Positions 36,893 through 63,485 are shown, counted from the first letter of the stretch. The stretch: DNA of 64,000 nucleotides from a bacterium (GCA_030652805.1 JAUSPT010000032.1:109992-173991); one strand, 5' to 3'. The notes: generated from the sequence alone by a model not told the origin. Translations and numbers: made by a program.

Positions 36893-36919
36893 GTTTTTTC
36901 CTCCTTGTTTTTGTTTTAA

Positions 36920-37750: not shown

Positions 37751-37768
37751 ATCTACCTCCCTTTTTTA

Positions 37769-40956: not shown

Positions 40957-40964
40957 AAAGTTAA

Positions 40965-41165
40965 TTATTGCGCTGATTCTAAATCATCAGCTGCTTTTTC
41001 AACTTTTGCTGATAACTTGTCTCTAAAATACTGGAACGCAACTATAGCAGCAATGGCTATTAACACCACTATCAGAATATATTCTGTCATGCCCTGCCCT
41101 TCTTCTCCGAATATAATCCCTTTCATTAAGTTTTTAAGCTTCTTCATTTTGTCACCCCCTTTCAT
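40965..41165 (-). CDS. flp: Flp/Fap-family pilin
   Basis: 66 aa; leader then the G|MTEYILIVVLIAIAAIV motif. Confidence 0.75.
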   Translation of the reverse strand: MKGGDKMKKLKNLMKGIIFGEEGQGMTEYILIVVLIAIAAIVAFQYFRDKLSAKVEKAADDLESAQ

Positions 41166-41169
41166 TCAT

Positions 41170-41349
41170 TTATGGAATAGGTAAACTAATAAGACTTGCG
41201 ATTCTATTGTAATAAGTTTTTAGCGCCTTACGAAACATCTCAAAACAACCTGCCAGACAAAGAACAGCTATTACTGTTACAAGAACATACTCTGTCATCG
41301 CTTGCCCTTTTTCGTCCAGCAACAAGTTTTTTAAACTCTGTACAAACAT
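41170..41349 (-). CDS. flp: second Flp-family pilin (59 aa; below the ORF-track length cutoff)
   Basis: Manual translation of the minus strand gives MFVQSLKNLLLDEKGQAMTEYVLVTVIAVLCLAGCFEMFRKALKTYYNRIASLISLPIP, with the G|AMTEY Flp motif. Confidence 0.6.
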   Translation of the reverse strand: MFVQSLKNLLLDEKGQAMTEYVLVTVIAVLCLAGCFEMFRKALKTYYNRIASLISLPIP

Positions 41350-41355
41350 TAATTG

Positions 41356-42198: not shown

Positions 42199-43629
42199 CT
42201 AGCGCTTGAGCTTTCCGTTTGCTGTTTTGTCTAATCGGGCTACACATAGAAATTCTTTTGGAACCTTATATGAAGCTAATCTCTGATAGCAAAATTTGCG
42301 CACACTATTGATATCAAAATCTGTTTTTGCTTTATTTTGCAGAACGATCATTGCACAGGGAAGCTGCCCATACTGAGGATGGGTAATGCCATACACAAGA
42401 GACTCCTTGATGTCAGGATGCTGATTGAGAACTGATTCCACTTCATAGGGAAAGACTTTCATGCCGGCAAAATTAATGATATGTTTTTCTCTGCCAACAA
42501 GAAACAGAAAGCCTTCTTTATCAAGTCTAGCTAGATCCCCTGTCTTAAACCAGCCGTTATGCAATACCTGCTTTTTACTTTGCCATGGAGAAAAGTATGC
42601 ATCAAACATTCCTTTTCCTTTAAGATAAACTTCACCAATCCCCTTAGCATCAGCATTTACTATTTTCACTTCGTAATCTGGTAGAATTCTGCCTACTGAC
42701 TCTTGCTTCGTTTTATCCTCAGAACAATTGAGAAACGGCAGGCCCACTTCAATAATTCCATACGCTTCAGTCAGTTGAAAACCAAACTTTTTATGAAAAT
42801 CATTTGCTATATCAACAGGCAGCTTTACTGCTGTACACACAGCCATACGGATACGACTTAACATATGGGAAGAAAGCATATCCGATTTTGTCAGCATATG
42901 ATAATGGAAAGGTGAAGCGTATATAAATGTTCCTCTGTGGGTTTTCAATTTCTCAAGCAGTAATTCAGGGAATGCGCGGCTGCAGAGAATAATTGTTGCC
43001 CCACGCCGCAGGAAAAGCAGAATCGTTACTACAAAATGAAAACTCATGGAAAGAACCCATATCACTATATCATTTGAAGTGATATTTAACCCTTTATCTG
43101 CAGCATTGGTTCTTTGAATAATGGCTTCATGGGAAATTACTACTCCTTTGCTTACCCCGGTTGTGCCTGATGAAAACCGGATAAAAGCAGGATTTAATGT
43201 ATAATAATCCGCTGGAACCTGTTTCTTCGCTGCGCGTTGATATAGAAAAAACTTTCTTTCACACACACAATCAGAAAAAATTCGAAGGCTGCCATGTTTG
43301 ATACACCTTTCTTTATTAGAGAGCAAAGCATTCACATCAATTTTTTCCAGTATATCATCAACTTCATACATGGATAACGACGTAGATACTGGAACAATAA
43401 CTGCAGGTAAAGACAGTACAGCCAGACTAATAATAATATAATCAATACTATCTTCACATAGTAATGCTACACGTTGAGCTGGCTGAACTCCATATGACTT
43501 TAATTCATCTGTAAGTTTCTCTACAGAAGCAAACAACTCGCCATAAGAAACCTGTTTATTCCCGTCAATGACAGCAATTTTCTTCTGAAGCTTTTTTGTT
43601 TCGCTCTTTATTACATCTACAATATTCAT
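42199..43629 (-). CDS. AMP-dependent synthetase/ligase (fatty acyl-AMP ligase / acyl-ACP synthetase-like)
   Basis: 476 aa; AMP-binding motif FSSGTTGVSKGVV; no CoA-ligase-type C-terminal extension was examined. Confidence 0.75.
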   Translation of the reverse strand: MNIVDVIKSETKKLQKKIAVIDGNKQVSYGELFASVEKLTDELKSYGVQPAQRVALLCEDSIDYIIISLAVLSLPAVIVPVSTSLSMYEVDDILEKIDVNALLSNKERCIKHGSLRIFSDCVCERKFFLYQRAAKKQVPADYYTLNPAFIRFSSGTTGVSKGVVISHEAIIQRTNAADKGLNITSNDIVIWVLSMSFHFVVTILLFLRRGATIILCSRAFPELLLEKLKTHRGTFIYASPFHYHMLTKSDMLSSHMLSRIRMAVCTAVKLPVDIANDFHKKFGFQLTEAYGIIEVGLPFLNCSEDKTKQESVGRILPDYEVKIVNADAKGIGEVYLKGKGMFDAYFSPWQSKKQVLHNGWFKTGDLARLDKEGFLFLVGREKHIINFAGMKVFPYEVESVLNQHPDIKESLVYGITHPQYGQLPCAMIVLQNKAKTDFDINSVRKFCYQRLASYKVPKEFLCVARLDKTANGKLKR

Positions 43630-44927
43630 AAGTCATCATCCCATATCTGCAATGGGGTGTCTTCTGTTCCCTCTGGGACAACAGGTGTTTCAGGATCGCT
43701 GCCGTCAAGATAGACGCCTTGTTGAATAAGCGATTTTCTCACTGCGGCAACAGCAATATGCCTAGGTTGGATGCTTTGTCGTGCCGCCAGTGATGCTGCG
43801 ACACCGGCAGCCTGCCCCGTGGCAAAGCATGGTACTATAAGACGCAAGGAGTTGTCGGCAAGATAGTCAGACGAAATACAACGTCCAGCAACAAGCAATC
43901 CGTCAACGTTCTTCGGAACAAGACATCGAAAAGGAATGTCATAGTTCAACCTTGGCGGATCGTAGAGTTTGTAGCCGAGAAGATACGAGCCCAATCGCGC
44001 AATTGAGTCTTCAAAATGTCGGCTTGATCTGAGGTCATCATCGGTCAGAGTGTATTCCCCTCGGATACGACGGCTCTGCCGTACCCCAAACTGCGGCAGT
44101 GTCTCTTTGATGCGCGCATTCTCCCAACCGGGCATATGAGTGCGCAGATAGTATAAGGAGCGAAAATAATCGCGGCGCATTTGTGTCTCTGCCTTACTAA
44201 CTTCCTCAGCATCTGTCACATCAACCCCTTGTAGATACCGATGACGGTCCAGCATGACACCTCCGTTCAGCCTGCTAGCTTCTGCCACAACTTTCAGGAA
44301 GTGTTCAGGGGACTTCTTCTTAAACACCGCAACTTTTGCGCAGTCTATGCCATCAACTGTTACGCCCAGCGTCACATCGTGAGTATCACTGTCACACTTG
44401 CATCCTGCGCGAAACGCAACATCTGCGTCAGCAGTGCAGTCTATTACAACCTTGGCAAGAATGGCCCTGCGGCCGCTCTTACTCTCGGTGAAGAAACCGC
44501 GAACGTATGCACCATCAGTGATTGGATCACACACCAACGTGTGCAGGAGCAACTCTGCTCCTGCTTCTTCCAGCATTTCTGCAGCCTGCCACTTAAAAAC
44601 CTCTGGGTCAACCGCGTAATCGCCACAGCGATTTGGACCTTGAATTGCGTCAAACGTCTCCATTCGCTTCCTGATATCCAAAGCAATACCGCCAGCTTTG
44701 GGACGAACTCCATCCCCCATACCAAACACCCAGAGAACGTGAGCGCCTGTAATCATCCCTCCAAGATATCCATATCGTTCAACGACGAGCGTTTTCGCTC
44801 CTTCACGCGCGGCAGCAATACCGGCAGCAATACCGGCAGGACCGCCTCCAGCAACAAGCACGTCAACTGTCCTCTCAACTGGAATGCGCTGTTGTGGTTC
44901 AACTTCAATATCGTTATTGTGCATCAT
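43626..44927 (-). CDS. FAD-dependent oxidoreductase (FAD_oxidored family)
   Basis: Rossmann motif VLVAGGGPAGIAAGIAAAREG; conspicuously GC-rich (about 50%+) compared with flanking genes. Confidence 0.65.
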   Translation of the reverse strand: MMHNNDIEVEPQQRIPVERTVDVLVAGGGPAGIAAGIAAAREGAKTLVVERYGYLGGMITGAHVLWVFGMGDGVRPKAGGIALDIRKRMETFDAIQGPNRCGDYAVDPEVFKWQAAEMLEEAGAELLLHTLVCDPITDGAYVRGFFTESKSGRRAILAKVVIDCTADADVAFRAGCKCDSDTHDVTLGVTVDGIDCAKVAVFKKKSPEHFLKVVAEASRLNGGVMLDRHRYLQGVDVTDAEEVSKAETQMRRDYFRSLYYLRTHMPGWENARIKETLPQFGVRQSRRIRGEYTLTDDDLRSSRHFEDSIARLGSYLLGYKLYDPPRLNYDIPFRCLVPKNVDGLLVAGRCISSDYLADNSLRLIVPCFATGQAAGVAASLAARQSIQPRHIAVAAVRKSLIQQGVYLDGSDPETPVVPEGTEDTPLQIWDDDL

Positions 44928-46249
44928 AGATTCTGTTCCTCCTCTTTTGCCTCTCCTTCTAAGAGAGTGTGAGTTAATACTCCTAGTCCAGAACGCAAAG
45001 TGTGTATAATTGAATCTATCTCATCCTTTTCCAACATCTCATCTAAATAGGAAAAGACCACATTTAGCTTGCCCTGAAACTGGTTGAAGAATATTCCAAG
45101 CCCCGGAGGAATTGGAACTCTGGGCATATGGAAAATATTATGGATTTTTTTTCCCATAAACATCGGAGAATCGTATGCAGATTCGCCAATATAGGAAAAA
45201 CAAAAAGAAGCAATCTGCCCTTTTAACGGCATCCGCATTAGATAACTTAAAACAGGTAAAGGTGCAATTCGCATCAAAAGACTTGCTTTCTCAATATCCG
45301 CAGGTAAGTCTGCCTTTATCTGATCGTAGATCTGCTGTTTAATTGATTGCAAAAGAACAGAAAAACTATCAGCCTCATTTGCTTTCACTCGAAGCAGGAA
45401 AAAGGACATATGATTAAAGAAAATCTCTTGATGTACCTTTTCTACTGGACGCGTATCAATAGACACAGGAATTATATAATCACCTGTGAGTATACCCCTT
45501 TTGAGAAAAATGCTGTGCAAAGCCTCCATGGAAATTGCCAATGCATACGGCATAAGCATTAAATAACCTGCTTTATTATATGCAGTTTCGATAATTGCAG
45601 ATGTCTGGCGTTTATCAAGCGAGATTATCTTAAATTTAAATCCCTGATTGTTAACCACTGAATGTAAAGGCAAAAAGCGGGATTTATTCTCTGACAATTG
45701 TACCAGCTTCCTATTTACACGCTTACCTGCTTCAAATTTTTCCTGCCACTTACATAGATGAGCTGGTTCTGTAAGAGAAATCCTCTGGGAATAATCCATA
45801 TTCAAGAATGCTTCAGCTCCTCTGACGTCAAACAAACAATGGTCAAACACTACCCCTAGAAAACTTGTTTCTCCCGTATGGACAAGATGAAATGCAAGAT
45901 GCTCCTTAATACTGTTAAAGGGCATGTTTACTCCTTGCTCCAGTGTAAAGAGCACTTTGCTAAATGTTGCATTATCATCAAGGCGGTAAGTCCTGATGTT
46001 CGGAGAGAGCATTTTATTATTGGAATAAATCTTCCAGTATGGAGCAAGGTTGTAATTCCGCATCGGTCTGCCATTTACAACCGGAAATTTTTTAATGAAT
46101 TTGTTCAGGCATTCCCGAAGTGTTGTCTCATCAAGCGTGCCTTTCAGTTGAAGAACAACCTGAAACATGTTCCCAACGCCAGTTTCCTTTTTGTTAATAT
46201 GGTTAATTGTATGAATGATCCAGTCAACACCAGTTAAATAGCGTTTCAT
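44924..46249 (-). CDS. condensation-domain-like acyltransferase (C-domain / WS-DGAT / PapA5 superfamily)
   Basis: 441 aa; HxxxD motif in context (GVVFDHCLFDVRG) about 135 aa from the N-terminus. Confidence 0.4.
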   Translation of the reverse strand: MKRYLTGVDWIIHTINHINKKETGVGNMFQVVLQLKGTLDETTLRECLNKFIKKFPVVNGRPMRNYNLAPYWKIYSNNKMLSPNIRTYRLDDNATFSKVLFTLEQGVNMPFNSIKEHLAFHLVHTGETSFLGVVFDHCLFDVRGAEAFLNMDYSQRISLTEPAHLCKWQEKFEAGKRVNRKLVQLSENKSRFLPLHSVVNNQGFKFKIISLDKRQTSAIIETAYNKAGYLMLMPYALAISMEALHSIFLKRGILTGDYIIPVSIDTRPVEKVHQEIFFNHMSFFLLRVKANEADSFSVLLQSIKQQIYDQIKADLPADIEKASLLMRIAPLPVLSYLMRMPLKGQIASFCFSYIGESAYDSPMFMGKKIHNIFHMPRVPIPPGLGIFFNQFQGKLNVVFSYLDEMLEKDEIDSIIHTLRSGLGVLTHTLLEGEAKEEEQNL

Positions 46250-46250
46250 T

Positions 46251-46496
46251 CTAACTCATTCTGCTGATATATGACGCCAGCAAGTGGATGGTTTGAGAGT
46301 TTTCTCGTGTTAGTCCTGATTCCATTAACTTTAGATTAAATGTTTTTTCAATAAACACCAGAAGCTCCACAAAGCTAAATGAATCAACTCCTAGTGTGTG
46401 AAGAGGAGCATTTGAAGAAATTGTTGAAGAGTCTACATCTAATATTGTAGCAATCTCTTGGATCAGTGTTTCCTCGATATGTTTTACAGTCAACAT
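46251..46496 (-). CDS. acyl carrier protein
   Basis: 81 aa; phosphopantetheine site LGVDSFSFVEL. Confidence 0.75.
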   Translation of the reverse strand: MLTVKHIEETLIQEIATILDVDSSTISSNAPLHTLGVDSFSFVELLVFIEKTFNLKLMESGLTRENSQTIHLLASYISRMS

Positions 46497-46511
46497 GCAG
46501 CTTGTATCCTT

Positions 46512-47552
46512 TTACACAGTCAATTTAATAACAGCTTTTTCTCCTCCACAATTATACCTAATACAACTGATTCTCCGTATTTGAGCAGGTTCAGTCTTTG
46601 TGCATAGATTTATATTGTAGGGATTATGGCTAACTAGGCATGCGTAGTGTAGCTGCTTTTTTAACATGAGAGCAGCAGCAGCACAATTAAAACTTGTTCC
46701 AGTCATCATACTGCCGAATATTGGCGAATACCCTGAGATGCAAACACCTGATTCTGCAGCCTTTTGATATTCTTTCTCGTCTCCTGCAATACCGTCGGCA
46801 TCAAGAATGAACATATCCGGTCTATTTTTTTCAACCTCTTTATCATTTAAAGAGATGGCTGTTATTTCACAATATTTCTTATGAGATTTCTCCAGTGTCA
46901 TCAGAAAGAATACACTTCCCTCTCCTGGTACTGCTACAGGCGTTTTTGAAAAATTAAATGGTTTGATTCTGCCATCTCCAGCAATTCGCAACTTTTGCCT
47001 GCAGATGTATTCCATAACTGTGCCGCATTCATCAACGCTTCCAACAAGAACATATTCACACCGTTTCTCATAAAGCCAGGCTCGCGCAAGGATAAGAGCC
47101 TGGTGAAACGAAAATGCAAACTGAGTAAGTGTAATGGTTGGGCCACGGCTATCTAACACAGATGTAATATAAGACGCTGCTGCATTATGGACAGAATGAG
47201 AAAATATGGTTGGAGAAGCATTCCTATCACCATATTCAAGCATATCATCCAGAAAGCGGAATGTTGTTACATGCGGACCAAATGCTGTTGAGACAATAAT
47301 ACCAAGAGAAGATTTCTTTTTATTAAAATTAATGCCACTATCCACTACAGCGTCACTGGCTGCTAATACTGCCATTTTACTGAATCTATCCGCACGACGT
47401 ATCCCGCCCAAAATTCTTTTGTCTGTGATTGATTCTTCCTTCACATGATAACCAGAATCTTCAGGCTTTATCCATCCATGCCTCAATGCGTCATCATAGC
47501 GGTTAATTCCCCGTCCCCCGCTAAAAACAACACCTATTCCAAAAATATTCAT
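46512..47552 (-). CDS. ketosynthase-like protein lacking active-site Cys (chain-length-factor-like KS partner)
   Basis: 346 aa thiolase-fold; the KS Cys position reads TQFAFSF; start overlaps the upstream KS stop (coupled). Confidence 0.55.
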   Translation of the reverse strand: MNIFGIGVVFSGGRGINRYDDALRHGWIKPEDSGYHVKEESITDKRILGGIRRADRFSKMAVLAASDAVVDSGINFNKKKSSLGIIVSTAFGPHVTTFRFLDDMLEYGDRNASPTIFSHSVHNAAASYITSVLDSRGPTITLTQFAFSFHQALILARAWLYEKRCEYVLVGSVDECGTVMEYICRQKLRIAGDGRIKPFNFSKTPVAVPGEGSVFFLMTLEKSHKKYCEITAISLNDKEVEKNRPDMFILDADGIAGDEKEYQKAAESGVCISGYSPIFGSMMTGTSFNCAAAALMLKKQLHYACLVSHNPYNINLCTKTEPAQIRRISCIRYNCGGEKAVIKLTV

Positions 47553-48673
47553 GCTCCTCTCCCAATAACAATCGCAGCATTGTTGCCGCCAAAGGCAAGG
47601 GACGTAGAAAGGGCAAAAGATCCGTGTATGCTCGTCTTCTCTCTAACCGGCGTTATAGGTATTTCATCATCCTGATTTACAAAACCAGCGCTTGCAGGTA
47701 TCCATCCTTCCAGAAGCGCAGCACCTGTAAAAACAGCTTCCAATCCTCCTGCGCCGCCAAGTGTATGCCCCGTAAATCCCTTTGTAGAAAGAACCTTAAT
47801 ATCCTTACCAAAAACCCTTGCTAGAACCATACCCTCAACTTTATCATTATCCCGGGTTGCAGTGCCGTGAGCATTAACAAAACAGACCTCTTGAGAACTA
47901 ATGCATGCTTCAGAAAGCGCTCTCTGAATCGCTGCTTCCAATCCTGTACCATCAGGTCTTGGAGCAGTAAGATGATAGGCGTCTGCTGAAGCGCCGTATC
48001 CAGCAAGATACAATCTAGGGGCATTGCCCGAGGCATTGCCTCTCTTACAAGCACATGCTTCTCTCTCAAGCACAAGAATTCCAGCACCTTCCCCTAAGTT
48101 TAATCCTTTACGATCTCTGTCAAATGGAGCGCATAATGATTCACTGACAATCCCAAGTGCCCCAAAACCGCATATAGGAATACGGTTCAATTCGTCTGCG
48201 CCACCGGCAATAGCGATATCACACTCTCCATTCCTTAACCAGGATAACGCTACTCCAATCGCATCAGCGCCTGAAGAACATGCATTAACCACAGTAACAC
48301 GTGGACCTTTTGCTCCTATAGTATTTGCAACAGCTTGGGCAAGGTTTCCTTTTAAAAATCGGTCGACAGAATCCATCGGGGCTTTTCCCGAACTCCTGTA
48401 CGAATGATAGAAGTCAACATCATTTAACTGGCTTGCCACAGTAGTCCCAAGACATACTCCTACACGAAAATCCTCAATGCGTTTTTTTAGTTCTGCCTTA
48501 TTTAGGGCTTCCTCTACTGCGCACAAAGCAAGACTTAAAGTGCTCATTCTGTGTTCAAAGACTGGTTTTTTATTTACTTGTCCGCGCTGAAATGTATCCA
48601 GTGTTTCTGTGAGATTTGTACCTGCAGCAGAAATCGCACCCATGCCTGTTATTATTATGTTTGTTTTCTCCAT
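47549..48673 (-). CDS. beta-ketoacyl-ACP synthase (KAS I/II-like)
   Basis: 374 aa; active-site NACSSGADAIG; HGTATRDND and GHTLGGAGG motifs. Confidence 0.85.
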   Translation of the reverse strand: MEKTNIIITGMGAISAAGTNLTETLDTFQRGQVNKKPVFEHRMSTLSLALCAVEEALNKAELKKRIEDFRVGVCLGTTVASQLNDVDFYHSYRSSGKAPMDSVDRFLKGNLAQAVANTIGAKGPRVTVVNACSSGADAIGVALSWLRNGECDIAIAGGADELNRIPICGFGALGIVSESLCAPFDRDRKGLNLGEGAGILVLEREACACKRGNASGNAPRLYLAGYGASADAYHLTAPRPDGTGLEAAIQRALSEACISSQEVCFVNAHGTATRDNDKVEGMVLARVFGKDIKVLSTKGFTGHTLGGAGGLEAVFTGAALLEGWIPASAGFVNQDDEIPITPVREKTSIHGSFALSTSLAFGGNNAAIVIGRGA

Positions 48674-48700
48674 GAAACTCCGTTGAGAGAAAATGCGAAT

Positions 48701-48982
48701 TTATGCTGCTGTATTCTCGTATATATATTGTGCCAGAGTGTCGATTGAATAAAATATTTTTCTGCCCTGATCCATATCTTTGATTTCTAACCCAAAATTC
48801 CGCTGCAATAGCACAACAATTTCTACTGCATCTAAAGAATCCAGTCCAAGTCCTTCGCCAAACAGAACCTCGTCATCTTTAATATCTTCAGGTTTTACAT
48901 TCTCTAATGATAGGCTGCTTACAAGCAGTTTTTTTAACTTGTTTCGTATTTCCTTCAATTCTTTTTGTTTCTGCTCTGCCAT
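48701..48982 (-). CDS. acyl carrier protein (second copy)
   Basis: 93 aa; LGLDSLDAVEIV phosphopantetheine motif. Confidence 0.75.
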   Translation of the reverse strand: MAEQKQKELKEIRNKLKKLLVSSLSLENVKPEDIKDDEVLFGEGLGLDSLDAVEIVVLLQRNFGLEIKDMDQGRKIFYSIDTLAQYIYENTAA

Positions 48983-49093
48983 TTAATCTTCTCCTATATT
49001 TAGCGGTATTCAACAAGCGATATCATATCCTCTTATTGCTCTTTTTTCAAGGAACAATTCCAACACGGTATAAGAGTGGATTTTTGGCAACCA

Positions 49094-49711
49094 TTAGAAT
49101 GGGAAACTGATTCCGATAATGATTTTGCTTGAATTAAGTGGTACGTTGGGTTGCTTCATGCCAGCGTTAGATATGTGATGAAATCTATATTCTAACACAA
49201 ATGAACGGCCTTTTCTGGTCTTGTAACTAAGTCCTAGTCCCGCTTGATAATTCCCGCAGATATTGGCGCCCATGCCAGGTATGTTCGCTTCCGTATAGAC
49301 AGGACCGCCGCCCACGAAGAAATATGGCATGTATCTTTGCGATGTCTTCAGCGTCCAGGATGAAAGAAAGTTCAAGCCAAAAATCCGGCCATCATCAGGC
49401 TTAATAAGATAAGACACAGGTAGTTCTATCAGGAAGTTATGACTTCCGCGGTACCAGTCACGTCCAGTATCTTTGAGTTTTCGCCTATATCGCAGAATTA
49501 CATCCACTGTCTCAACATGTTCACGAGTTTTGCCGAGTCCCGGATGCGTGGTACTGTAGCCGCTCAGCAACATCCATGATTCATCAGTTTGATCCGTATC
49601 GGCAAAGGCAACGTTAATTGCAACAACTGTGAACAGCAGTATCAGGCAGATTAATTTCATGGCGCACACCAAATCACTGAAGAGCATCTTTGTTCTGTTC
49701 ATTCTTCCCAT
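49094..49711 (-). CDS. PagL-like outer-membrane lipid deacylase / acyloxyacyl-hydrolase-family beta-barrel
   Basis: 205 aa; signal peptide; C-terminal Phe; HHISNAG (His/Ser pair as in PagL). Confidence 0.45.
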   Translation of the reverse strand: MGRMNRTKMLFSDLVCAMKLICLILLFTVVAINVAFADTDQTDESWMLLSGYSTTHPGLGKTREHVETVDVILRYRRKLKDTGRDWYRGSHNFLIELPVSYLIKPDDGRIFGLNFLSSWTLKTSQRYMPYFFVGGGPVYTEANIPGMGANICGNYQAGLGLSYKTRKGRSFVLEYRFHHISNAGMKQPNVPLNSSKIIIGISFPF

Positions 49712-50619
49712 ACATCACGAAATAAAAAATATTGATAAGGGTGTTTGTGTGTATATGCTTCAAGCAACGCGGCAAATTTTTGAACCCATTGCTGTAGTTG
49801 ATGGTGTTTATCCTTTTCACTAATATAGCATGGATACAGCACATTAGATACATCAACAATGTACTGATAAGTAGATACTTTCTCTGACAATAGAACAACC
49901 ACCGGACATCCTGCCGCTGCTGCAATTGTAAAGCCGCCGTATGGGAACCAGGCTTTCTCTCCAAGAAATGAAACTTCTACGGCTTTAAACCCATATCTGC
50001 GGTCACCCATAATGGACACAATATGTTTTTCCTTTAATTTATTCATGATTTCAACAATTCCACCAAGATCTTGTTCAGGAGAAATAATCTTGATATGGTT
50101 CTGTTCCCTGCTGATACGCAGTGAACTTTGCACTGCAGGGTTATCTTCCGGACGCATAACAAGATACACCGTTTTTTCCAGTTTTTTTAATGCTGTCATA
50201 GCGACCTGCCAGTTACCAACATGAGCAGTTAGTAAAATTATTCCATGAGGAGAATTCTGAATCAGGGACATCAATTGTTCATATCCATGTAATTGGATAT
50301 CAAATATTTCCTGCCCTGAAACAATAGCGTATCGATCAATAAGCTGTTTTCCCTGACTTACAAACAATCTATATACGTGTCTCAGCCTTTTTACAAAACC
50401 ATGTGATGGAAACCTTCTGTTAATATACGCCAAAGCTCCACAAACAGCTGCTTGGTCAAACAGCACATAATAGATACAGACAATATATAATAATCCATAC
50501 GCTCCTCTTAACCCAAAAAAGCGCAGAGAAATCCTAAAAAACCAGAATCCAAGGGCATTCCCTCTTTTTTTTGCTTCAATTTTTCGAGATGCTTTAGCTT
50601 TTTTCATTTTTACCATCAA
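49699..50619 (-). CDS. LpxL/HtrB-family (lysophospholipid acyltransferase superfamily) acyltransferase
   Basis: 306 aa; N-terminal membrane anchor; LPLAT-type fold pattern; first gene of the cluster. Confidence 0.6.
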   Translation of the reverse strand: MMVKMKKAKASRKIEAKKRGNALGFWFFRISLRFFGLRGAYGLLYIVCIYYVLFDQAAVCGALAYINRRFPSHGFVKRLRHVYRLFVSQGKQLIDRYAIVSGQEIFDIQLHGYEQLMSLIQNSPHGIILLTAHVGNWQVAMTALKKLEKTVYLVMRPEDNPAVQSSLRISREQNHIKIISPEQDLGGIVEIMNKLKEKHIVSIMGDRRYGFKAVEVSFLGEKAWFPYGGFTIAAAAGCPVVVLLSEKVSTYQYIVDVSNVLYPCYISEKDKHHQLQQWVQKFAALLEAYTHKHPYQYFLFRDVWEE

Positions 50620-50858: not shown

Positions 50859-52502
50859 ATGTTTTGTTTTCAATGTCAGGAAACGGCTAAAAACCAAGGC
50901 TGCACCGTAAAAGGCGTGTGCGGAAAACCCGAGGAGACCGCGGACCTGCAGGATCTGCTCATTTACGTGTGTAAAGGAATCTCGATCTATGGTGAAAAGT
51001 TAAAGGAAATGGGCACTATGGGCAAGAACGCAGCCCACTTCGTGTGCAAGGCACTTTTTACCACCATCACCAATGTGGCATGGGACGATGATGTCGTCAT
51101 CGGCCGGATCAAGGAGGGTTTCAGGGTTCGGGACGCAGTCAGGGAAAAGGCCGGAGCCGCCATGTCCGGCGCGCTTCCGGATTGCGCCACCTGGTTCTCA
51201 GAGGACAAGGAGGCCATCATGGCCAAGGCCATGTCCGATGAAGTGCGCATCACCACCGCTGAAAACGAGGACGTGCGCTCCCTCAGAGAGCTGCTCATCA
51301 TCGGCTGCAAGGGAATCGCAGCTTATGCCGATCATGCCGCGATTCTTGGTCATGAGAAGGATGATATCTACGGCTTCCTCATGGAGGCCCTGGCATCCAC
51401 CACCAAGGATCTTTCAACGGATGAGATGATCGCCATGGTCATGAAGGCAGGGGAGATGGCTGTAAATACTATGGCCCTTCTGGATGAGGCCAATACAACT
51501 GCCTATGGCAATCCCGAGATCACGGAGGTCAACATCGGCGTCAGAAACAATCCCGGAATCCTGATCTCCGGCCACGACTTGAAAGACATGGAAGAACTGC
51601 TCAGGCAAACCAAAGACGGGTGTGATGTTTACACCCACGGGGAAATGCTGCCGGCCAACTACTATCCGGCCTTTAAGAAGTATGACCATTTCGTGGGCAA
51701 CTACGGCGGGTCGTGGTGGCATCAGAACAAGGAATTCGAATCCTTTAACGGCCCCATCATTCTGACAACCAACTGCCTGATTCCCATCAAAAAGGAAAAC
51801 ACCTATCTGAAACGGCTCTTTACTACCGGCGTCGTCAACTATCCCGGGGCCAAACACATCGCGGACAGGCCGGAAGGCGGGACAAAGGATTTCTCCCCGG
51901 TCGTGGCGCTGGCGAAAACATGCAAGTCACCGGAAGAGATAGAATCTGGCAAGATCGTTGGTGGGTTCGCCCATAACCAGGTCCTGGCCCTGGCTGACAA
52001 AGTGATCGACGCCGTTAAGTCAGGAGCCATCAAACGCTTTGTTGTCATGGCCGGGTGCGACGGCCGCCAAAAAGCCCGAAGTTATTTTACTGAAGTGGCC
52101 GAGAAGCTGCCCGAAGACACGGTAATTCTCACCGCCGGATGCGCCAAATACCGCTACAACAAGCTGGCACTGGGTGACATCGGCGGTATTCCCCGCGTGC
52201 TGGACGCCGGTCAGTGCAACGACTCCTACTCCCTGGCGGTGATCGCCTTGAAACTCAAGGAAGCATTCGGACTGAACGACATCAATGAGCTACCCGTCTC
52301 TTACGACATCGCCTGGTACGAGCAAAAAGCAGTGACCGTGTTGCTGGCCCTGCTGTTTCTCGGCGTCAAAGGAATTCGCCTGGGTCCCACATTGCCGGCC
52401 TTCCTGTCTCCCAATGTGGCCAAGGTCCTGGTGGAAAAATTCGACATCAAACCTATTGGAACCGTGCAGGATGATATTGTGGCAATGATGAAAGGAGAAT
52501 AA
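50859..52502 (+). CDS. hcp: hybrid cluster protein / hydroxylamine reductase
   Basis: 547 aa; N-terminal Cys cluster [23 protein letters not shown]; GC about 55%, far above the window background. Confidence 0.9.
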
Positions 52503-52540
52503 TACGGTTTGAATGAAAAATACGATATAACAAGGCGCTC

Positions 52541-52602
52541 CACCGGACGGCAATTCCGCTGCGCTCCATTGCCGCCGGTGAGCTTGGTCGTTCTACTTTT
52601 TT
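52541..52602 (+). terminator. candidate hcp terminator (GC-rich 13-bp bulged stem, T-run 16 nt downstream)
   Basis: CACCGGACGGCAAT (52541-52554) pairs with ATTGCCGCCGGTG (52568-52580) around a 13-nt loop; TTTTTT at 52597-52602. The T-run is not immediately adjacent, so this is only partly canonical. Confidence 0.3.
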
Positions 52603-52777
52603 CACATAGAAATCTTAACAGATTATTTTTCTCTTTTCAATTGCCTAAGAACCAGGTTGGTTCAAAAGAACCAAATTGGTTCAAATAGGAAATAAACAAA
52701 GTAGCTCGCTTATTTCAACTTGATATTGTTGAAGCTTTTCTTTAAAGTAATATCTAATTTTACTATAAAGATAGAAG

Positions 52778-54367
52778 ATGATACAGGCGAATAATCAAGT
52801 TCCGGACAGGTGTGATGTTGTAGTCATCGGAGCAGGGGCAGGTGGACTCACCGCAGCAGGGCTTCTCTCAAGGGTTGGTCTTCAAACAGTAGTTCTTGAG
52901 ACTCAGCCACAGCCGGGGGGATACCTGGCAGGTTTTCAGCGACAGGGCTTTCAGTTCAACACTTCCATCCAATGGCTCAATCAATGCGGTCCCGGCGGAT
53001 TCGTCTACAACATCTGGCGTCATTTAGGCGGCGAGTTTCCAACCTGCGCACCGTTGACTCGCATACACAGATATAAAAGCGATTCGTTCGACTATTTGCT
53101 GAGTTCCAATCCTATCGACTTACAGGATTGCCTTATCAAGGACTTTCCTGATGATGAGAGCGGTATCAGAGCTTTTTTCAAGGATGGGGAAAGACTTGGA
53201 CAGCGGCTGAATGTCCTGAACAGCAGGACAATGGCGAAAGAGACCATGCCATTCTTTGAAAGAGTTATTCGCAACTTACAAATGCTGTTTTGGGCAATTC
53301 CTGTCGCTAAATACGTGATGAGCCCTGTCGAGAAAGGGCTGCGCCGCTATTTCAGTACGGAGGGTGCTCAAAAGATATTCTGCAGTCAAGAATCCTTTAT
53401 GTCCGTTATGGTGCCTATCGCTTGGGCATTCGCCGGAAATTTTCAAACTTGTCCCAAAGGAGGAAGTCGCACACTGGCTTTATGGCTGTGTGAGAGAATC
53501 AGATCTGCCGGGTCGAAAGTATTGCTGAACCAGCACGTGGAAAGAGTGCTGTTAAACGCTAGAAAAGAAGCGACCGGTGTATTACTGGCAGACGGAAGTT
53601 CTCTGAGAGCTCGATACGTGATTGCAGCCTGCGACGTACAGATGCTCTATGAAAAGATGCTGCCGGACGGCTGTATTCCGGTACGGATGCGAAAAGCACT
53701 GCATAATGCCGATATTTATCATTCCAGCTTCAGCATATTTCTGGGACTGGATTGCGATGCTTCTTCTTTGGGATTCGGAGAAGAAGTATTGAATCTCACT
53801 AGGAGCGATGTATCACGTGAAGATCACATGAGTGGTGACCCACATCGCACGATCATGGTCGTCATCGCGCCTTCAGTTCGTGATTCTTCTCTGGCACCGG
53901 AAGGCAAGGGAACCCTTATGATACATTGTCCGGCGTATCTCGATTACGAAGACAATTGGAGAACCGGCAAGGGGCTGGCGAGGGGCGAGCCCTACAGAGC
54001 ATTGAAAAGAAAGTTTGCCGACATCCTGCTGGCCCGGATTGAGAAAACCTTCGCTCCCGGGCTGAGGAAGCACATAGAGGTGATGGAGATTGCAACACCT
54101 GTAACATACTGGCGATATACGGGCAACACCAAGGGAAGCATTTCAGGGATTAAACCAACGGGAAGAAATATCAGAATCAGTGTAGCACGTTACAAAACGC
54201 CTGTGAAGAATTTATTGTTGGGAGGTCATTGTGCAGAATACGGCGGGGGTGTTCCAATGGCTGTAAAGGCCGGTGCGAATGCTAGTCTCATCGTCATGAA
54301 AGACATGAAAAGAGCGGCTTACGATGAACTGAAAGACGTAATAAACGGCGTAGAAAGGCACCACTGA
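52778..54367 (+). CDS. phytoene-desaturase-like (CrtI/COG1233) FAD/NAD(P)-binding oxidoreductase
   Basis: 529 aa; N-terminal VVVIGAGAGGLTAAGLLSRVGLQTVVLE dinucleotide-binding motif; moderately GC-rich. Confidence 0.65.
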   Translation: MIQANNQVPDRCDVVVIGAGAGGLTAAGLLSRVGLQTVVLETQPQPGGYLAGFQRQGFQFNTSIQWLNQCGPGGFVYNIWRHLGGEFPTCAPLTRIHRYKSDSFDYLLSSNPIDLQDCLIKDFPDDESGIRAFFKDGERLGQRLNVLNSRTMAKETMPFFERVIRNLQMLFWAIPVAKYVMSPVEKGLRRYFSTEGAQKIFCSQESFMSVMVPIAWAFAGNFQTCPKGGSRTLALWLCERIRSAGSKVLLNQHVERVLLNARKEATGVLLADGSSLRARYVIAACDVQMLYEKMLPDGCIPVRMRKALHNADIYHSSFSIFLGLDCDASSLGFGEEVLNLTRSDVSREDHMSGDPHRTIMVVIAPSVRDSSLAPEGKGTLMIHCPAYLDYEDNWRTGKGLARGEPYRALKRKFADILLARIEKTFAPGLRKHIEVMEIATPVTYWRYTGNTKGSISGIKPTGRNIRISVARYKTPVKNLLLGGHCAEYGGGVPMAVKAGANASLIVMKDMKRAAYDELKDVINGVERHH

Positions 54368-54463: not shown

Positions 54464-54646
54464 ATGTCTATACTACAGGTAGATAATAGTAGTGAAAAAA
54501 GAGAAATGGAGTTTGAACTGGACTACTTGAAAAAGCTCTCTATTGGTGAACGAATGCAAATGATGCTTCAAAAATCTAAAGAGATGGCAAAAATTCTTAG
54601 AAGAAATGAAGATAGAAAAACTACTTTCATTACTCAGAGACAATAA
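54464..54646 (+). CDS. small hypothetical protein (candidate antitoxin-like partner of the downstream nucleotidyltransferase)
   Basis: 60 aa; overlaps the next ORF by 41 nt, a typical two-gene module layout. Confidence 0.2.
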   Translation: MSILQVDNSSEKREMEFELDYLKKLSIGERMQMMLQKSKEMAKILRRNEDRKTTFITQRQ

Positions 54647-55055
54647 GGTAGAATTTGTCCTGATTGGCGCAGTCACCTTCCCTGTCTATGGTTACTCAAG
54701 ATCCACATTAGATACTGATATCTTTATAAGACCAACAATCGAGAATGCAAAAAACACACTGATAAGCCTGGAAGAATTTGGTTATGATGTGTCATGCTTA
54801 ACTCCTGAATCGCTTCTGAAGAAAAAAACTCTTATCCGTCAATATATTGTGGAAACAGACATTCATCCATTTGTCAAAGGTATTTCATTTGAAGAGGTTT
54901 GGGAGAATAAAGTTGAGAACTTCTTTGGTAAACAGAAAGTTTATTTTGCTTCTCTAGAAGATATTATAAAAATGAAGAAAGCTGCTGGAAGAGTTAAAGA
55001 TAGAGAAGATTTGAAAGTCCTCAAAAGATTATTAAAGCAAGAAAGACCTAATTAG
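54606..55055 (+). CDS. nucleotidyltransferase-fold protein (MNT/AbiEii-like)
   Basis: 149 aa; NTase motif LIGAVTFPVYGYSRSTLDTDIFI (G[SA]…DxD); C-terminal GRVKDREDLKVL motif. Confidence 0.45.
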   Translation: MKIEKLLSLLRDNKVEFVLIGAVTFPVYGYSRSTLDTDIFIRPTIENAKNTLISLEEFGYDVSCLTPESLLKKKTLIRQYIVETDIHPFVKGISFEEVWENKVENFFGKQKVYFASLEDIIKMKKAAGRVKDREDLKVLKRLLKQERPN

Positions 55056-55197
55056 CAGTTTCTATTCTGTAATTCCTACAATAACTACTAATATCGGCGC
55101 AGCAATAAGAGAATAAAAGAGGGCTCAAATCTTTTTTTGCATGTATTTGCAAAATATTGCTTGTATTTGCTTAATTTTTCTGCTAGAATCTTGAATT

Positions 55198-55479
55198 ATG
55201 AATAAAGAGATTATGAGTATAGTTGGGATTTCAAGATATCTCGGATTTAGCCAGAGAAAAATTTATCAGTTAATAAAAGAAGGGAAGATTCCTGTCTCAA
55301 AAATCGGCGGGCAGTATCGCTTTATAAAAGATGAAATATATTTGTGGCTGAGAAGATCCAAACCTACAAATAAGTTAAATAACATTGATTTAGTAAATAA
55401 AATAAAAAAAGCCTGTGAGGAAAAGACAGCTGACGAACTGAATAATATTCTGAAGGAAATTTCCAATGAGAAGACATAA
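55198..55479 (+). CDS. HTH_17 / excisionase-family DNA-binding protein
   Basis: ISRYLGFSQRKIYQLIKEGKIPVSKIGGQYRF matches the excisionase-type HTH. Confidence 0.55.
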   Translation: MNKEIMSIVGISRYLGFSQRKIYQLIKEGKIPVSKIGGQYRFIKDEIYLWLRRSKPTNKLNNIDLVNKIKKACEEKTADELNNILKEISNEKT

Positions 55480-57623: not shown

Positions 57624-58613
57624 TTATTTTTCAACTATAGTTTCTTCAATCTTCATTCCAAAATGCCTGCCAGACTTTTCTATGTGCCCGAGCACTTCAT
57701 CTCCGGGCTTCAAGCTGACGACAGAAACTGGTTTTCCTTCCGGAGTTACTAATCTTATTGTTTCTGCATTTTGCAATACAAGTGACACTTCCTGTTTGTT
57801 GCAGGTTCCTTCTACAAGAAGCATAGGCCTTTTCTCAATCTTTATTCTGCCAACAATCACCTCTTGTGTCTTTCCTTCCCAGTTTACAATCAGTGCCTTA
57901 TCCCCTGCTTTAAGATCCGAAAGATATCGTGTTTTTCCATCTGTAACCATCACATATGCATGCACTCCTCCTGCATTTACACGAAAAGGTCTTTGATCAA
58001 CATACGGATTTTCTACTGATTCTGAATGCAAAAGAAACATGCTCGAGCTTGTATTACCAACCAGCATTCCTTCTCCAATAGTCATATTAGTACAGGTATC
58101 TACACAAACCCTATCTCCAACGCCTAATGACTTTACAGACTTGATCTTTATTTTTTTAATAGATAGCAAGACACTTTCTATTTTTAGCTGTTTAATCACT
58201 TTTCTTAATTCAGCAGGATTTTTTATATCCAATAAAACACCATCTACCCCTTTCTCAAGGGTATTCAAGGCTGCTTCTGCTTCTTGTAAATTCTTAACTT
58301 CTGCTATTAACCCTTTTGTTTGGGCAATAAGATTTTCCAGAGGGATAATCTTCCAGTCATGCGTCTTAATAACTATCCATTTGTTATGTATCGTTGCTGC
58401 TTTGATTTCATCCTCTTTTTTCTTAATTTCTATTTGCGCAACATCCTTGTCTATTTGCAGATCTCCATCCTCAGAAACAGTTTGTATTTTTCCCAGTTCC
58501 TTTACCTTCCCGTTAAATCCTTTATCAACAACAACAAAATCTGCTCCACATTCCAGAGCTGCAACAACGATCTCTTTATTCCACGGTCTCGCATTAACCC
58601 AAACTTGTTTCAC
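57624..58613 (-). CDS. 3-dehydroquinate synthase type II (archaeal-type AroB')
   Basis: 329 aa; family-level resemblance; co-located and co-oriented with the DhnA-type aldolase, as in archaeal aroA'-aroB' pairs. Confidence 0.6.
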   Translation of the reverse strand: MKQVWVNARPWNKEIVVAALECGADFVVVDKGFNGKVKELGKIQTVSEDGDLQIDKDVAQIEIKKKEDEIKAATIHNKWIVIKTHDWKIIPLENLIAQTKGLIAEVKNLQEAEAALNTLEKGVDGVLLDIKNPAELRKVIKQLKIESVLLSIKKIKIKSVKSLGVGDRVCVDTCTNMTIGEGMLVGNTSSSMFLLHSESVENPYVDQRPFRVNAGGVHAYVMVTDGKTRYLSDLKAGDKALIVNWEGKTQEVIVGRIKIEKRPMLLVEGTCNKQEVSLVLQNAETIRLVTPEGKPVSVVSLKPGDEVLGHIEKSGRHFGMKIEETIVEK

Positions 58614-58628
58614 TATTTATCATCCTTA

Positions 58629-59426
58629 TTAATTTAAAATTTTTAACGCTTCCTCTACAGAGACATCTTCATGCACAATCTTGCATATTGCCTCAACCAT
58701 CTTTTTAGGATGCTTATGCTGAAATGCATTTCTTCCAATAGAAACCCCTGCCCCGCCTGCTTCCAGCGAGTTTTTAACATTTTCAAGCACTTCGCTGTCA
58801 TTAGACGCCTTTTCTCCTCCGGCAATAACTACTGGTATTGGACATCCTTCAACAACCTCGGAAAAAGTCTCCTTTGATCCTGTGTATGTAACCTTAACAA
58901 TATCTGCGCCTAATTCTGCTGCAATCCTTGCTGCATGTTTAACTCCTTCAACCTCTGATTCACTCTTGAACTTCTTCCCACGTATATACATCATTGCAAG
59001 AAGAGGCATTCCCCAGTTCATACATGCAACACTGACCATGCCAAGATCCCTTAGCATCTCTGCCTCGTTCTCAGCACCAATATTTATATGAACAGATACT
59101 CCATCAGCGCCCATTTTCAGAGCATTTTCAACTGTGTTTACCAATACCTTTGCATTTGGGTCAGGACTCCAGAGAGTACTACCAGAAAGATGCAAAATTA
59201 ATCCTATGTCTTTACCATGTCTTCTGTGACCATGCTTGGGAAGACCAACATGTCCTAAAACTGCATTTGCACCGCCTTCAGCAATGTCATTTACCATATC
59301 CCGCATATTCACAATTCCCTTGATCGGCCCTACAGTTACACCATGGTCCATTGGCACAATAACAGTTCTTCCAGTATTTCTATTAATTATCCTCTCCAAA
59401 CGTATACTCTTTCCTAATCTGGACAT
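58629..59426 (-). CDS. DhnA-type class I aldolase; likely 2-amino-3,7-dideoxy-D-threo-hept-6-ulosonate (ADH) synthase AroA'
   Basis: 265 aa; DhnA-family pattern (…[15 protein letters not shown]…, Schiff-base Lys region). The adjacent DHQS-II gene supports the ADH-synthase role. Confidence 0.6.
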
Positions 59427-59502
59427 ATTGCAGTCTCCTTTATACAGATTCCCTAATTAAACTATTAAATCGGTGGTATGATATTAAATTTTATGTGCTG
59501 TG

Positions 59503-60441
59503 TCAAATTTCTCGCAATCCTGCTAATCTGAGAATGTTATGACAAATCAAGTCAATTTCTCTATCTGTACTGCTTATTTCTATCCACTTAGTCCTTGAAT
59601 CCTTCTTGAACCAAGTCATCTGTCTTTTTGCAAAATGACGGGTATTTTTCTTGAGGAGTGCTTTTGCTTCATCAAGACCATAATGTCCATTTATGTATCC
59701 CAAAACTTCCCTATATCCTAAACTCTGCATAGGCAAAAGGTCTTCGTCATATCCTTTTTTTATGAGCCGTCTAACCTCTCTCGTAAGCCCTTTTTTGAAC
59801 ATAAAATCCACTCTGCTCTCAATTCTCCTATAAAGATTTTTGCGTTCTGCCTTAAGCCCTATTATGCGATATTGACAATCTATGGACTCGGCTTTAGTTT
59901 TACTCTGAAGACTTGAAATAGTCTCTCCTGTTGATAAAAAAACTTCCAGAGCTCTGATTATTCTTCTCCAATCATTTGGATGAATCCTTGCTGCAGCTAT
60001 AGGATCAACTTTTTTAAGCTTTCCATACATATAACGAGAACCCTTATTAGCCAGCTGAGCTCTTACTCTTTTTTTAATAGTCTCTTTGACCATAGGTTCA
60101 GAGAAAAGACCGTCAATTACCGCTCTTATATATAAACCTGAACCCCCGACAAGTATCGGAGTTTTGCCTGAGTTAATAATTCTATTTATTTTGTCTCTTG
60201 CCATTTTCGCATATTCCCCTGCACTGAAATATTGATCAGGATAAATAATATCTATCATGTGATGAGGAACTGCTCTTCTCTCTTCTCTTGACGGTTTTGC
60301 TGTTCCAATATTCATGTATTTATATACTTGCATGGAATCTGCTGATACAATTTCTGAAGGGAAGAATGCAGAAAGGCTTACAGCAATTTTACTTTTGCCT
60401 ATACCTGTAGGGCCTACAAGGACTATAACGGAGGAATTCAT
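59503..60441 (-). CDS. miaA: tRNA dimethylallyltransferase
   Basis: P-loop VLVGPTGIGKSKIAVSL and IPT-family core. Confidence 0.9.
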   Translation of the reverse strand: MNSSVIVLVGPTGIGKSKIAVSLSAFFPSEIVSADSMQVYKYMNIGTAKPSREERRAVPHHMIDIIYPDQYFSAGEYAKMARDKINRIINSGKTPILVGGSGLYIRAVIDGLFSEPMVKETIKKRVRAQLANKGSRYMYGKLKKVDPIAAARIHPNDWRRIIRALEVFLSTGETISSLQSKTKAESIDCQYRIIGLKAERKNLYRRIESRVDFMFKKGLTREVRRLIKKGYDEDLLPMQSLGYREVLGYINGHYGLDEAKALLKKNTRHFAKRQMTWFKKDSRTKWIEISSTDREIDLICHNILRLAGLREI

Positions 60442-61445: not shown

Positions 61446-61916
61446 TTATAACTGTTGTTGTATTTTTTTTATTATATCGGTTGTTGAATGGTTTTTCTTA
61501 TCTCCAGTTATTGCAATCTGTCCACCATAGGAAAGAACAATATCTCGTTCTGGAACAGTCTCAGCTGTATAATCTGTTCCTTTTGCATGTATTGCTGGTT
61601 TTATAATCTTTAACAAATTTTCTACAGTAAGGTCTGAAAAAAGCACTACATAATTCACGCATTCTAAAGCTGCTACAATCTCTATTCTATCTTCCTCCTG
61701 CATAATTGGTCTGCCATGCCCTTTCAATTGTGATTCAGATTCATCATCATTGATCCCTACAATTAATATATCGCCCAAAGACTTTGCTTGCTCAAGATAT
61801 CTGGTATGCCCTACATGCAGAATATCAAAACAGCCGTTTGCAAAAACTATTTTTTTGTTATCTTTTTTAAGTTCTTTTACCAGATTAGGAAGGTTATTTA
61901 GACTATAAACCTTCAT
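61446..61916 (-). CDS. hldC: D-glycero-beta-D-manno-heptose-1-phosphate adenylyltransferase (RfaE domain II, stand-alone)
   Basis: Cytidylyltransferase motif FANGCFDILHVGH. Confidence 0.75.
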   Translation of the reverse strand: MKVYSLNNLPNLVKELKKDNKKIVFANGCFDILHVGHTRYLEQAKSLGDILIVGINDDESESQLKGHGRPIMQEEDRIEIVAALECVNYVVLFSDLTVENLLKIIKPAIHAKGTDYTAETVPERDIVLSYGGQIAITGDKKNHSTTDIIKKIQQQL

Positions 61917-62911
61917 GATTTTTTTGCGTATTTTACAACATCAATCAACTCTTTTTGTGTGGCTGTAGCTGCACCTGTTTTCATAACAACAATACTGCCC
62001 GCATAGTTTGCCAGTCTTGCAGCCTCAATTGCGCTTGCTCCTGCTGAAAGAGCCAGAGTTACTACGGCAGAAACCGTATCCCCTGCACCAGTAACATCAA
62101 CCACGTCTGTACTTCCGTGTATTGGTATAAATGTACTTTTACTGTGTTTGTCTAATACCATCATGCCTTTACTGCCGCGCGTTATGATTGTATTCTCGCA
62201 CTCTATCTCGGATTTAAGCCTCTCTGCTATGCTGCACAGGGATTTTTCTCCATTAATGCTGCAATGAAAAACATCTTCAACCTCTGTCTCATTCGGTGTT
62301 ACTGCTGTTGCATACTTATAGTTGAGTAATCCATACCTGGAATCAACAACCAGAACAAGTTTCTTCTCCTTTGCATACTTAGATATTGCAGAATACACCG
62401 CTTTTGAGATAGTCTTGTATCCATAATCTGAAATAAGTACAGCATCCATAGTATCTAGCACTTCGTCAAGATAAGTAAGCATTTTTGTTTCGCTAATTGA
62501 ACTTATGCGAAAATTCTTTTCTTTATCTATTCGTATGACCTGCTGCTTTGCTGTATGGTAACTACCTGCCATAATCCGTGTTTTTGTAATTGTTGAACAG
62601 GATTTATCAATAATAATTCCGTCTGTGTCCACCCTCATTTTCCCGAGAAAGGAAACAACCTCTTTCCCAGCATTATCATTCCCTATCACACCAACGGGAT
62701 ATACTCTTGCACCTAACGCTTTTAGGTTTGATATCGCATTTGCTGCTCCTCCCACCTTGAACATGTTTGAATCAAACTTTAAAATCAATACAGGTGCTTC
62801 CCTTGATATGCGAGAGACCTCCCCATATACATATTCGTCACATATCATATCCCCAATGCTAAGCACTCTTTTACCGCTGAACTCTTTAGTAATACCTGCT
62901 AAATCACTCAT
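61913..62911 (-). CDS. hldA: D-glycero-beta-D-manno-heptose-7-phosphate kinase (RfaE domain I, PfkB family)
   Basis: PfkB ribokinase-like fold; DVTGAGDT motif. Confidence 0.75.
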   Translation of the reverse strand: MSDLAGITKEFSGKRVLSIGDMICDEYVYGEVSRISREAPVLILKFDSNMFKVGGAANAISNLKALGARVYPVGVIGNDNAGKEVVSFLGKMRVDTDGIIIDKSCSTITKTRIMAGSYHTAKQQVIRIDKEKNFRISSISETKMLTYLDEVLDTMDAVLISDYGYKTISKAVYSAISKYAKEKKLVLVVDSRYGLLNYKYATAVTPNETEVEDVFHCSINGEKSLCSIAERLKSEIECENTIITRGSKGMMVLDKHSKSTFIPIHGSTDVVDVTGAGDTVSAVVTLALSAGASAIEAARLANYAGSIVVMKTGAATATQKELIDVVKYAKKS

Positions 62912-63485
62912 TTTTTTCTCTGTTTATATTTCTTATTATCCATTTTACAGCATCATATAAATTTTCTGCAATATGGGCAGGCACAATACCCGCCTTCCTT
63001 AGCTTATTTTGCTCTAGTTTTCCATAACCTGTTCTAACCAGTATTCCCATTGCAGATATATTATGGGCAACTTTAATATCTGTTAATTTATCTCCTATAA
63101 TATAACATTTATTGAGTTTTAAATCAAAATCCTTTGCAGCCAGTTTGAACATCCCCTTTTTAGGTTTTCTACAAGAGCATTCCTCATCAGGATGGTGTGG
63201 GCAATAGTATATTGCGTCTATATAAGCACCATTCCTACGCAATCTTCTCTTTAATTCATTATGCACATTATCTAAATCGTCTATAGAGAATAGACCTCGG
63301 CCAATGCCTGACTGGTTGGTAACAATAATAACTTTAATCTTATTCTGATTTAAAAATCTGATAGCCTTTGCAGCATCTCTGATGAGTCTTAAATCCTTCA
63401 CACTCTTTAAATAATCAACCTCTGTATTAATTGTCCCATCTCTATCTAAAAAAACTGCTCTATGTGGATATATATTGTCAGTCAC
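62904..63485 (-). CDS. gmhB: D,D-heptose 1,7-bisphosphate phosphatase
   Basis: HAD motif FLDRDGTIN; Zn-finger-like CPHHPDEECSCRKP typical of GmhB. Confidence 0.8.
   Translation of the reverse strand: MTDNIYPHRAVFLDRDGTINTEVDYLKSVKDLRLIRDAAKAIRFLNQNKIKVIIVTNQSGIGRGLFSIDDLDNVHNELKRRLRRNGAYIDAIYYCPHHPDEECSCRKPKKGMFKLAAKDFDLKLNKCYIIGDKLTDIKVAHNISAMGILVRTGYGKLEQNKLRKAGIVPAHIAENLYDAVKWIIRNINREKNE

Follow-up and report, generated by a model that had tools for sequence, protein, structure and literature searches.

Does a bacterium that carries genes resembling those of archaeal ADH synthase and 3-dehydroquinate synthase II (DHQS-II) side by side enter the shikimate pathway through aspartate semialdehyde, and are these genes archaeal in origin? 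The question is raised by a locus within a 64-kb stretch of bacterial DNA (hereafter, the window), in which the original prediction had recognized a DhnA-family aldolase directly upstream of a DHQS-II-like protein on the same strand.

The gene pair and its surroundings

This arrangement proved exact to the base: the aldolase gene precedes the DHQS-II gene, with 15 nt between the TAA stop of the former and the GTG start of the latter (Table 1). The Shine-Dalgarno-like AAGGA within this gap, 9 nt before the GTG, is consistent with translation of the pair from one bicistronic mRNA; a second such motif precedes the aldolase ATG by 8 nt. Further upstream, a candidate sigma-70-type promoter reaches from the very end of miaA into the 76-nt intergenic region, with its -10 hexamer ending 51 nt before the aldolase ATG. 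The pair is apparently under its own promoter at this candidate site, which is to be read as a lead and not as evidence of function, since the total of promoter-like sites in the region was not above the shuffle expectation. On the downstream side, 8 nt lie between the DHQS-II stop and the end of a convergent gene for a GNA1162-like lipoprotein. No regulatory RNA was detected upstream of the pair, with no Rfam match and no tRNA anywhere in the 64-kb window, and the plus-strand ORFs called over the pair were rejected as antisense shadows of both genes.

Table 1. Coordinates of the features discussed (positions in the window; functions as predicted)
Feature	Position	Strand	Details
hisC-like aminotransferase gene	7756-8823		
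hisD	8820-10046	-	PF00815
ORF with GspG pseudopilin match	14607-16475	-	622 aa; match limited to residues 484-615
Endonuclease and DNA methyltransferase genes	24700-26180	-	
Tad locus	26312-42147	-	
Fatty-acyl-AMP ligase/ACP/ketosynthase cluster	42199-50619	-	
Hybrid-cluster (prismane) protein gene	50859-52502	+	GC 0.54, GC3 0.68 (+3.6 and +4.8 sd from the window's genes)
Amine-oxidase/phytoene-desaturase-like gene	52778-54367	+	GC 0.49
HTH_17 (excisionase-like) gene, beside DUF2204-like gene	54606-55479	+	
3-Dehydroquinate synthase II gene (aroB', EC 1.4.1.24)	57624-58613	-	329 aa, GTG start
ORFs over the gene pair (rejected)	57682-57996, 58039-58632, 58320-58637	+	
Shine-Dalgarno-like AAGGA	58623-58627	-	sequence reading
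ADH synthase gene (aroA', EC 2.2.1.10)	58629-59426	-	265 aa, ATG start; six-frame ORF list
Shine-Dalgarno-like AAGGAG	59435-59440	-	sequence reading
Candidate sigma-70-type promoter, TTGACA-17 nt-TATCAT	59478-59506	-	consensus scan, 11/12 matches
miaA	59503-60441		PF01715
Heptose-pathway genes (PfkB, cytidylyltransferase, HAD phosphatase)	61446-63485		

When the 64 ORFs called in the window were all inventoried with Pfam, every one of the bacterial flanks that had been named for the pair (miaA, hisCD, a heptose pathway, Tad and T2SS) was recovered, the hisC among them being a hisC-like aminotransferase gene. The type II secretion locus comprises the secretin, GspE, F, G, J, K and PilM/N, and the Tad pilus locus comprises RcpC/CpaB, TadE, a CpaF-like ATPase, TadB/C and an A24 prepilin peptidase; PagL and a lipid A acyltransferase are encoded as well. 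Taken together, the T2SS, Tad, PagL/lipid A acyltransferase and heptose genes and the miaA, hisD and hisC-like flanks indicate that the host is a diderm bacterium. Close relatives of its HisD show 81-90% identity, and the next matches reach 50-55% and are spread over Clostridia, Nitrospirota and others; this drop from 81-90% to 55% or less points to a deep lineage.

Several other loci of the window deserve mention in their own right. The N-terminal extension of the long ORF with the GspG pseudopilin match is almost certainly an artefact of ORF calling, the true start lying far downstream. A gene with a MutH/Sau3AI-like endonuclease domain adjoins a gene for an N6/N4 DNA methyltransferase, and the two probably form a type II restriction-modification pair. 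The Tad locus is flanked by signaling genes, which encode a PP2C phosphatase, an NHL-repeat Ser/Thr kinase and several FHA-domain proteins, one of them a fusion with the CpaF-like ATPase; this suggests phospho-regulation of pilus assembly. The adjacent cluster contains an unassigned 441-aa ORF along with genes for an AMP-binding (fatty-acyl-AMP ligase-like) enzyme, an FAD oxidoreductase, two ACPs and two ketosynthase-like proteins; the PagL lipid A deacylase domain and the lipid A acyltransferase come next, and the whole may represent a lipid or lipid A modification pathway. In addition, the prismane gene and its amine-oxidase/phytoene-desaturase-like neighbor (50859-54367) look like a compositional island that was probably acquired recently.

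Identity of the aldolase and of the DHQS-II protein

As judged from its sequence, the 265-aa protein is an ADH synthase, that is, a DhnA/DeoC-type class I (Schiff-base) aldolase/transaldolase, and the corresponding activity is predicted. It scored 369.5 bits against the cut-off of 299.45 for the ADH synthase equivalog TIGR01949, with residues 4-262 aligned to profile positions 1-255 of 255, and 404.9 bits against the cut-off of 241 for the NCBIfam model NF005556; in Pfam, it matched the DeoC/LacD aldolase family PF01791 DeoC with E=6.5e-65. The LsrF thiolase model NF006081 was rejected (166.3 against a cut-off of 297).

The best match among solved structures was MJ0400 (AroA') of Methanocaldococcus jannaschii (PDB 2QJG; also 2QJH and 2QJI), with 349 bits and 59% identity over 261 gapless residues. 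Lys178, Asp27 and Tyr147 of the window aldolase align without gaps with Lys184, Asp33 and Tyr153 of MJ0400, which we take to be the catalytic residues as numbered in the 2QJG paper and which fit the motifs IVK, PMDHG and MMY. In ADH synthase, these residues serve as the Schiff-base lysine, the general-base aspartate and the proton-donor tyrosine (PMC2728841). The two enzymes thus share their length class, the DhnA/DeoC TIM-barrel family, the catalytic Lys/Asp/Tyr and a passing score for TIGR01949; they differ in that the window aldolase belongs to a bacterial host and a bacterial clade and that its function is read from sequence.

The 329-aa protein is, by the same kind of evidence, a 3-dehydroquinate synthase II, for which an NAD+-dependent deamination and cyclization of ADH is predicted. 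The original prediction, which had proposed searches with TIGR01949 and PF01959, had allowed that this protein might miss the DHQS-II models. Instead, it matched PF01959 DHQS at full length (residues 2-329, E=9.6e-128, 426.3 bits against a cut-off of 22.2) and the equivalog NF002627 over residues 1-329 of the 330-position model (471.5 bits against a cut-off of 392); PF26558 DHQS_2nd is on record for it as well. The family membership of both proteins is established by these model matches, and the conservation of the catalytic residues in the aldolase by the alignment with MJ0400.

The N-terminus read from the GTG, MKQVWVNARPW, agrees with the family consensus, in which M1, K2 and W5 are invariant. 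In total, 83 columns were invariant in an alignment of 39 sequences including the window DHQS-II, for example D167-R168-V169-C170, H196, E198, R208-P209-F210-R211, H218 and R316-H317-F318-G319; this is a shallow test of invariance, since no aligned sequence falls below 57% identity to the query. A search of structure sequences gave no solved structure for the DHQS-II family that is detectable by sequence.

With MJ1249 of M. jannaschii and OE1475F of haloarchaea (PF01959), the protein has in common the full-length PF01959 match, the NCBIfam DHQS-II equivalog match and the pairing with an aldolase. In contrast to the longer archaeal DHQS-II, it is the short form of 329-330 aa (NF002627), with approximately 30-45 residues fewer and an identity of 38-46%; the matches in Methanothrix and Methanolobus span approximately 373-377 codons. 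Longer DHQS-II models resembling the archaeal forms aligned to it from approximately residue 60 onward and remained below their cut-offs.

Relatives, conserved pairing and origin of the pair

A search with the DHQS-II protein yielded at least 8000 matches at E<=1e-10. Among the matches listed, nearly all of the best ones are 330 aa long and many already bear the name “3-dehydroquinate synthase II”; named matches also come from NPL-UPA2, Desantisbacteria, Nitrospirota and Desulfobacterota, and the 330-aa form is also present, at about 60% identity, in a few MAGs labeled as DPANN archaea. A 90%-identical NCBI protein is named “3-dehydroquinate synthase II [bacterium].” The pair is already known, being curated and widely annotated in many anaerobic and uncultured bacterial lineages, with near-identical proteins already named in databases. 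In this respect, the locus is less unusual than was implied: the bacterial form makes up an extensive, deep clade that has been annotated before and is no isolated archaeal gene in a bacterial host.

Among the GTDB species representatives, the nearest is the uncultured bacterium MAG CAYTGU01 (92% identity), which shares with the window the gene order miaA-aldolase-DHQS-II-lipoprotein-patatin. Homologues with 52-61% identity were found in NPL-UPA2, Nitrospirota, Zipacnadia, Desulfobacteraceae (Desulfobacterota), Verrucomicrobiota, Poribacteria and other bacterial MAGs; a Lentisphaerae homologue is 48% identical, and for those of archaea (Methanothrix, Methanolobus, Methanomassiliicoccales and others), which are longer by about 40 residues, the identity is 38-46%. 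The conserved pairing is established across species-representative genomes: at 28 of the 31 bacterial loci with upstream sequence, the aldolase gene lies at most 300 nt upstream of the DHQS-II gene on the same strand, and the same arrangement occurs at 21 archaeal loci.

The original prediction had looked to the archaeal homologues for a phylogenetic comparison. Such a comparison was made for both proteins with neighbor-joining trees, in which the window sequences lie congruently inside a deep bacterial clade, apart from the sampled archaea. The trees are rough, with a sample picked by similarity to the query, and show this pattern without proving it. Furthermore, the GC and GC3 of both genes lie within 0.8 sd of the window's genes, and this native composition argues against a recent acquisition. 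Together with the closer identity to bacterial than to archaeal homologues, the congruent nesting in the two trees, the end-to-end fit to NF002627 where the longer archaeal-like models fail their cut-offs and the synteny conserved in the 92%-identical sister species, it makes a recent horizontal transfer of the pair from an archaeon very improbable, even though methanogens are where the pathway was first found, pathway databases label it “(archaea)” (PMC11364081) and the 330-aa form also occurs in the DPANN-labeled MAGs.

The synteny between the window and CAYTGU01 (13114-15377 of the extracted locus L082) ends just past the patatin gene. At this point, CAYTGU01 has a peptidase C69 gene and the window has the HTH_17 (excisionase-like) gene beside the DUF2204-like gene that both share; the break is a small indel or the scar of a mobile element. 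Another observation concerns second DhnA-type aldolase paralogues near the pair, one in a Desulfobacteraceae MAG (L009, 6217-8074; 48% identical to the window aldolase) and one in a Methanolobus MAG (L053, 18850-19632; 63% identical), which are candidates for an FBP aldolase or a DKFP-forming enzyme.

In several relatives, the pair is tied to the synthesis of aromatic amino acids. The gene order in NPL-UPA2 Unc8 is tRNA synthetase, chorismate mutase, aminotransferase, aldolase, DHQS-II and prephenate dehydrogenase; in a Nitrospirota MAG, it is chorismate mutase/prephenate dehydratase, aminotransferase, aldolase, DHQS-II and prephenate dehydrogenase, with EPSP synthase approximately 4 kb downstream. 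In Desulfovibrio hydrothermalis, an “aldolase aq_1554” and a “3-dehydroquinate synthase” (DESAMv2_21548/21549) are co-regulated with pheA, aroA, tyrA and trpEGD (PMC4162548). Through these contexts, the pair is linked in bacteria to the synthesis of aromatic amino acids, and the D. hydrothermalis cluster is the best published bacterial evidence for the pathway that we found; a dedicated open-access survey of the pathway in bacteria was not found, and the main texts of Price 2018 and GapMind do not discuss it. The pairs of these three relatives are orthologous to that of the window (58-66% identity) and have the same order and orientation, whereas the window pair is detached from any aromatic operon and lies between miaA and the convergent lipoprotein gene. 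Two further features were seen in NPL-UPA2: a second genome (L086, 11035-12311) carries an inserted bAvd/23S-rRNA-IVP-type gene immediately behind DHQS-II and has its prephenate dehydrogenase broken into two ORFs, and in NPL-UPA2 Unc8 (L085, 8646-9095), a Y1 (IS200-like) transposase gene lies just upstream of the aldolase.

The enzymes GriI/GriH, BagB/BagC and FevI/FevH of Streptomyces are homologous to ADH synthase and DHQS-II and form 3-amino-4-hydroxybenzoate, for a secondary metabolite, from aspartate semialdehyde and DHAP; like the window pair, they combine a class I aldolase for aspartate semialdehyde with a DHQS-II-like cyclase for the next step. Both models of the NF041223/NF041224 pair matched significantly, at scores below their curated cut-offs: the aldolase reached 221.6 of 500 for BagB/FevI (GriI-type, E=9.5e-66) and the DHQS-II protein 192.9 of 750 for BagC/FevH (GriH-type, E=7e-57), while the equivalogs of primary metabolism passed. 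The fatty-acyl-AMP ligase/ACP/ketosynthase cluster at 42-50.6 kb, approximately 8 kb from the pair, might be taken as a sign of such a function, but no tailoring genes adjoin the pair, its context is one of primary metabolism with no biosynthetic gene cluster, the relatives place it with genes for Phe/Tyr biosynthesis, and it has been kept across many phyla as a housekeeping-type unit. A role of the GriI/GriH type is thus exceedingly improbable. With the equivalogs passing, the rival models failing and aromatic operons in the relatives, the central claim of an archaeal-type ADH synthase/DHQS-II pair in a bacterium is upheld.

The predicted route to 3-dehydroquinate and its donor substrate

We consider it highly probable that the two genes form a bicistronic aroA'-aroB' unit whose products make 3-dehydroquinate with no need for DAHP synthase or the classical AroB. 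[quoted passage not shown] The aldolase would then move a hydroxyacetone unit to L-aspartate semialdehyde to give 2-amino-3,7-dideoxy-D-threo-hept-6-ulosonate (ADH), and DHQS-II with NAD+ would carry out the oxidative deamination of ADH and its cyclization to 3-dehydroquinate, which would proceed into the ordinary shikimate pathway to Phe, Tyr and Trp. Both steps of the M. jannaschii pathway are summarized in PMC4162585. We infer the donor substrate, the NAD dependence and the use of this route as the organism's only entry to the pathway.

Within the 64-kb window, we found no DAHP synthase, no classical AroB and no other shikimate-pathway gene, and neither an aspartate-semialdehyde dehydrogenase nor a methylglyoxal synthase nor a DKFP-forming gene. 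As regards the completeness of the pathway, it counts against the proposed reading that none of its other genes lies within these 64 kb and that the pair stands outside an aromatic operon here.

The pair could also make 3-dehydroquinate redundantly with a canonical DAHP synthase and AroB, or the aldolase could be mainly a gluconeogenic class I FBP aldolase for which the aromatic role is moonlighting. The search for genes of the canonical route was confined to the 64-kb window, enzymes of the MJ0400 family bind fructose 1,6-bisphosphate (2QJG is the complex with F1,6P), and a haloarchaeal homologue has FBP aldolase activity (PMC4162585). The FBP aldolase models, on the other hand, were rejected for the window aldolase: it scored 198.9 against a cut-off of 430 for the archaeal class I model NF040816 and 37-91 against cut-offs of 277-682 for the bacterial class I models NF006704-NF006707 (PRK09250 models). 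In addition, the tight conserved pairing with DHQS-II and the aromatic operons of the relatives point to a dedicated biosynthetic role. We therefore regard both variants, redundancy and moonlighting, as unlikely, and a dedicated aroA'-aroB' unit remains the preferred reading.

The donor substrate of the ADH synthase family is disputed in the literature, even in archaea. The Halobacterium salinarum homologue showed FBP aldolase activity and no detectable transaldolase activity with DKFP and aspartate semialdehyde (PMC4162585), its assignment is listed as “substrate uncertain” (PMC8305020), and DKFP synthase is undetected in many organisms carrying the pathway (PMC9012536). No DKFP-forming enzyme or methylglyoxal synthase linked to the pair was found in the window or in the related loci examined. 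From this lack of linkage and the archaeal dispute over the donor, we tentatively put forward the rather doubtful possibility that the large bacterial aroA' clade does not use DKFP and takes the three-carbon unit from another keto-sugar phosphate, e.g., fructose 1,6-bisphosphate or fructose 1-phosphate. If this were true, the pathway of bacteria would differ in its chemistry from that of M. jannaschii. The source of the keto-sugar donor in bacteria is a family-wide issue, which this locus makes no more tractable and to which it adds no new question.

Overall, pipelines that seek only DAHP synthase and AroB would wrongly call the host an aromatic amino acid auxotroph. The locus adds one more lineage for the aspartate-semialdehyde route to dehydroquinate as an old, broadly distributed bacterial trait and not an archaeal peculiarity.
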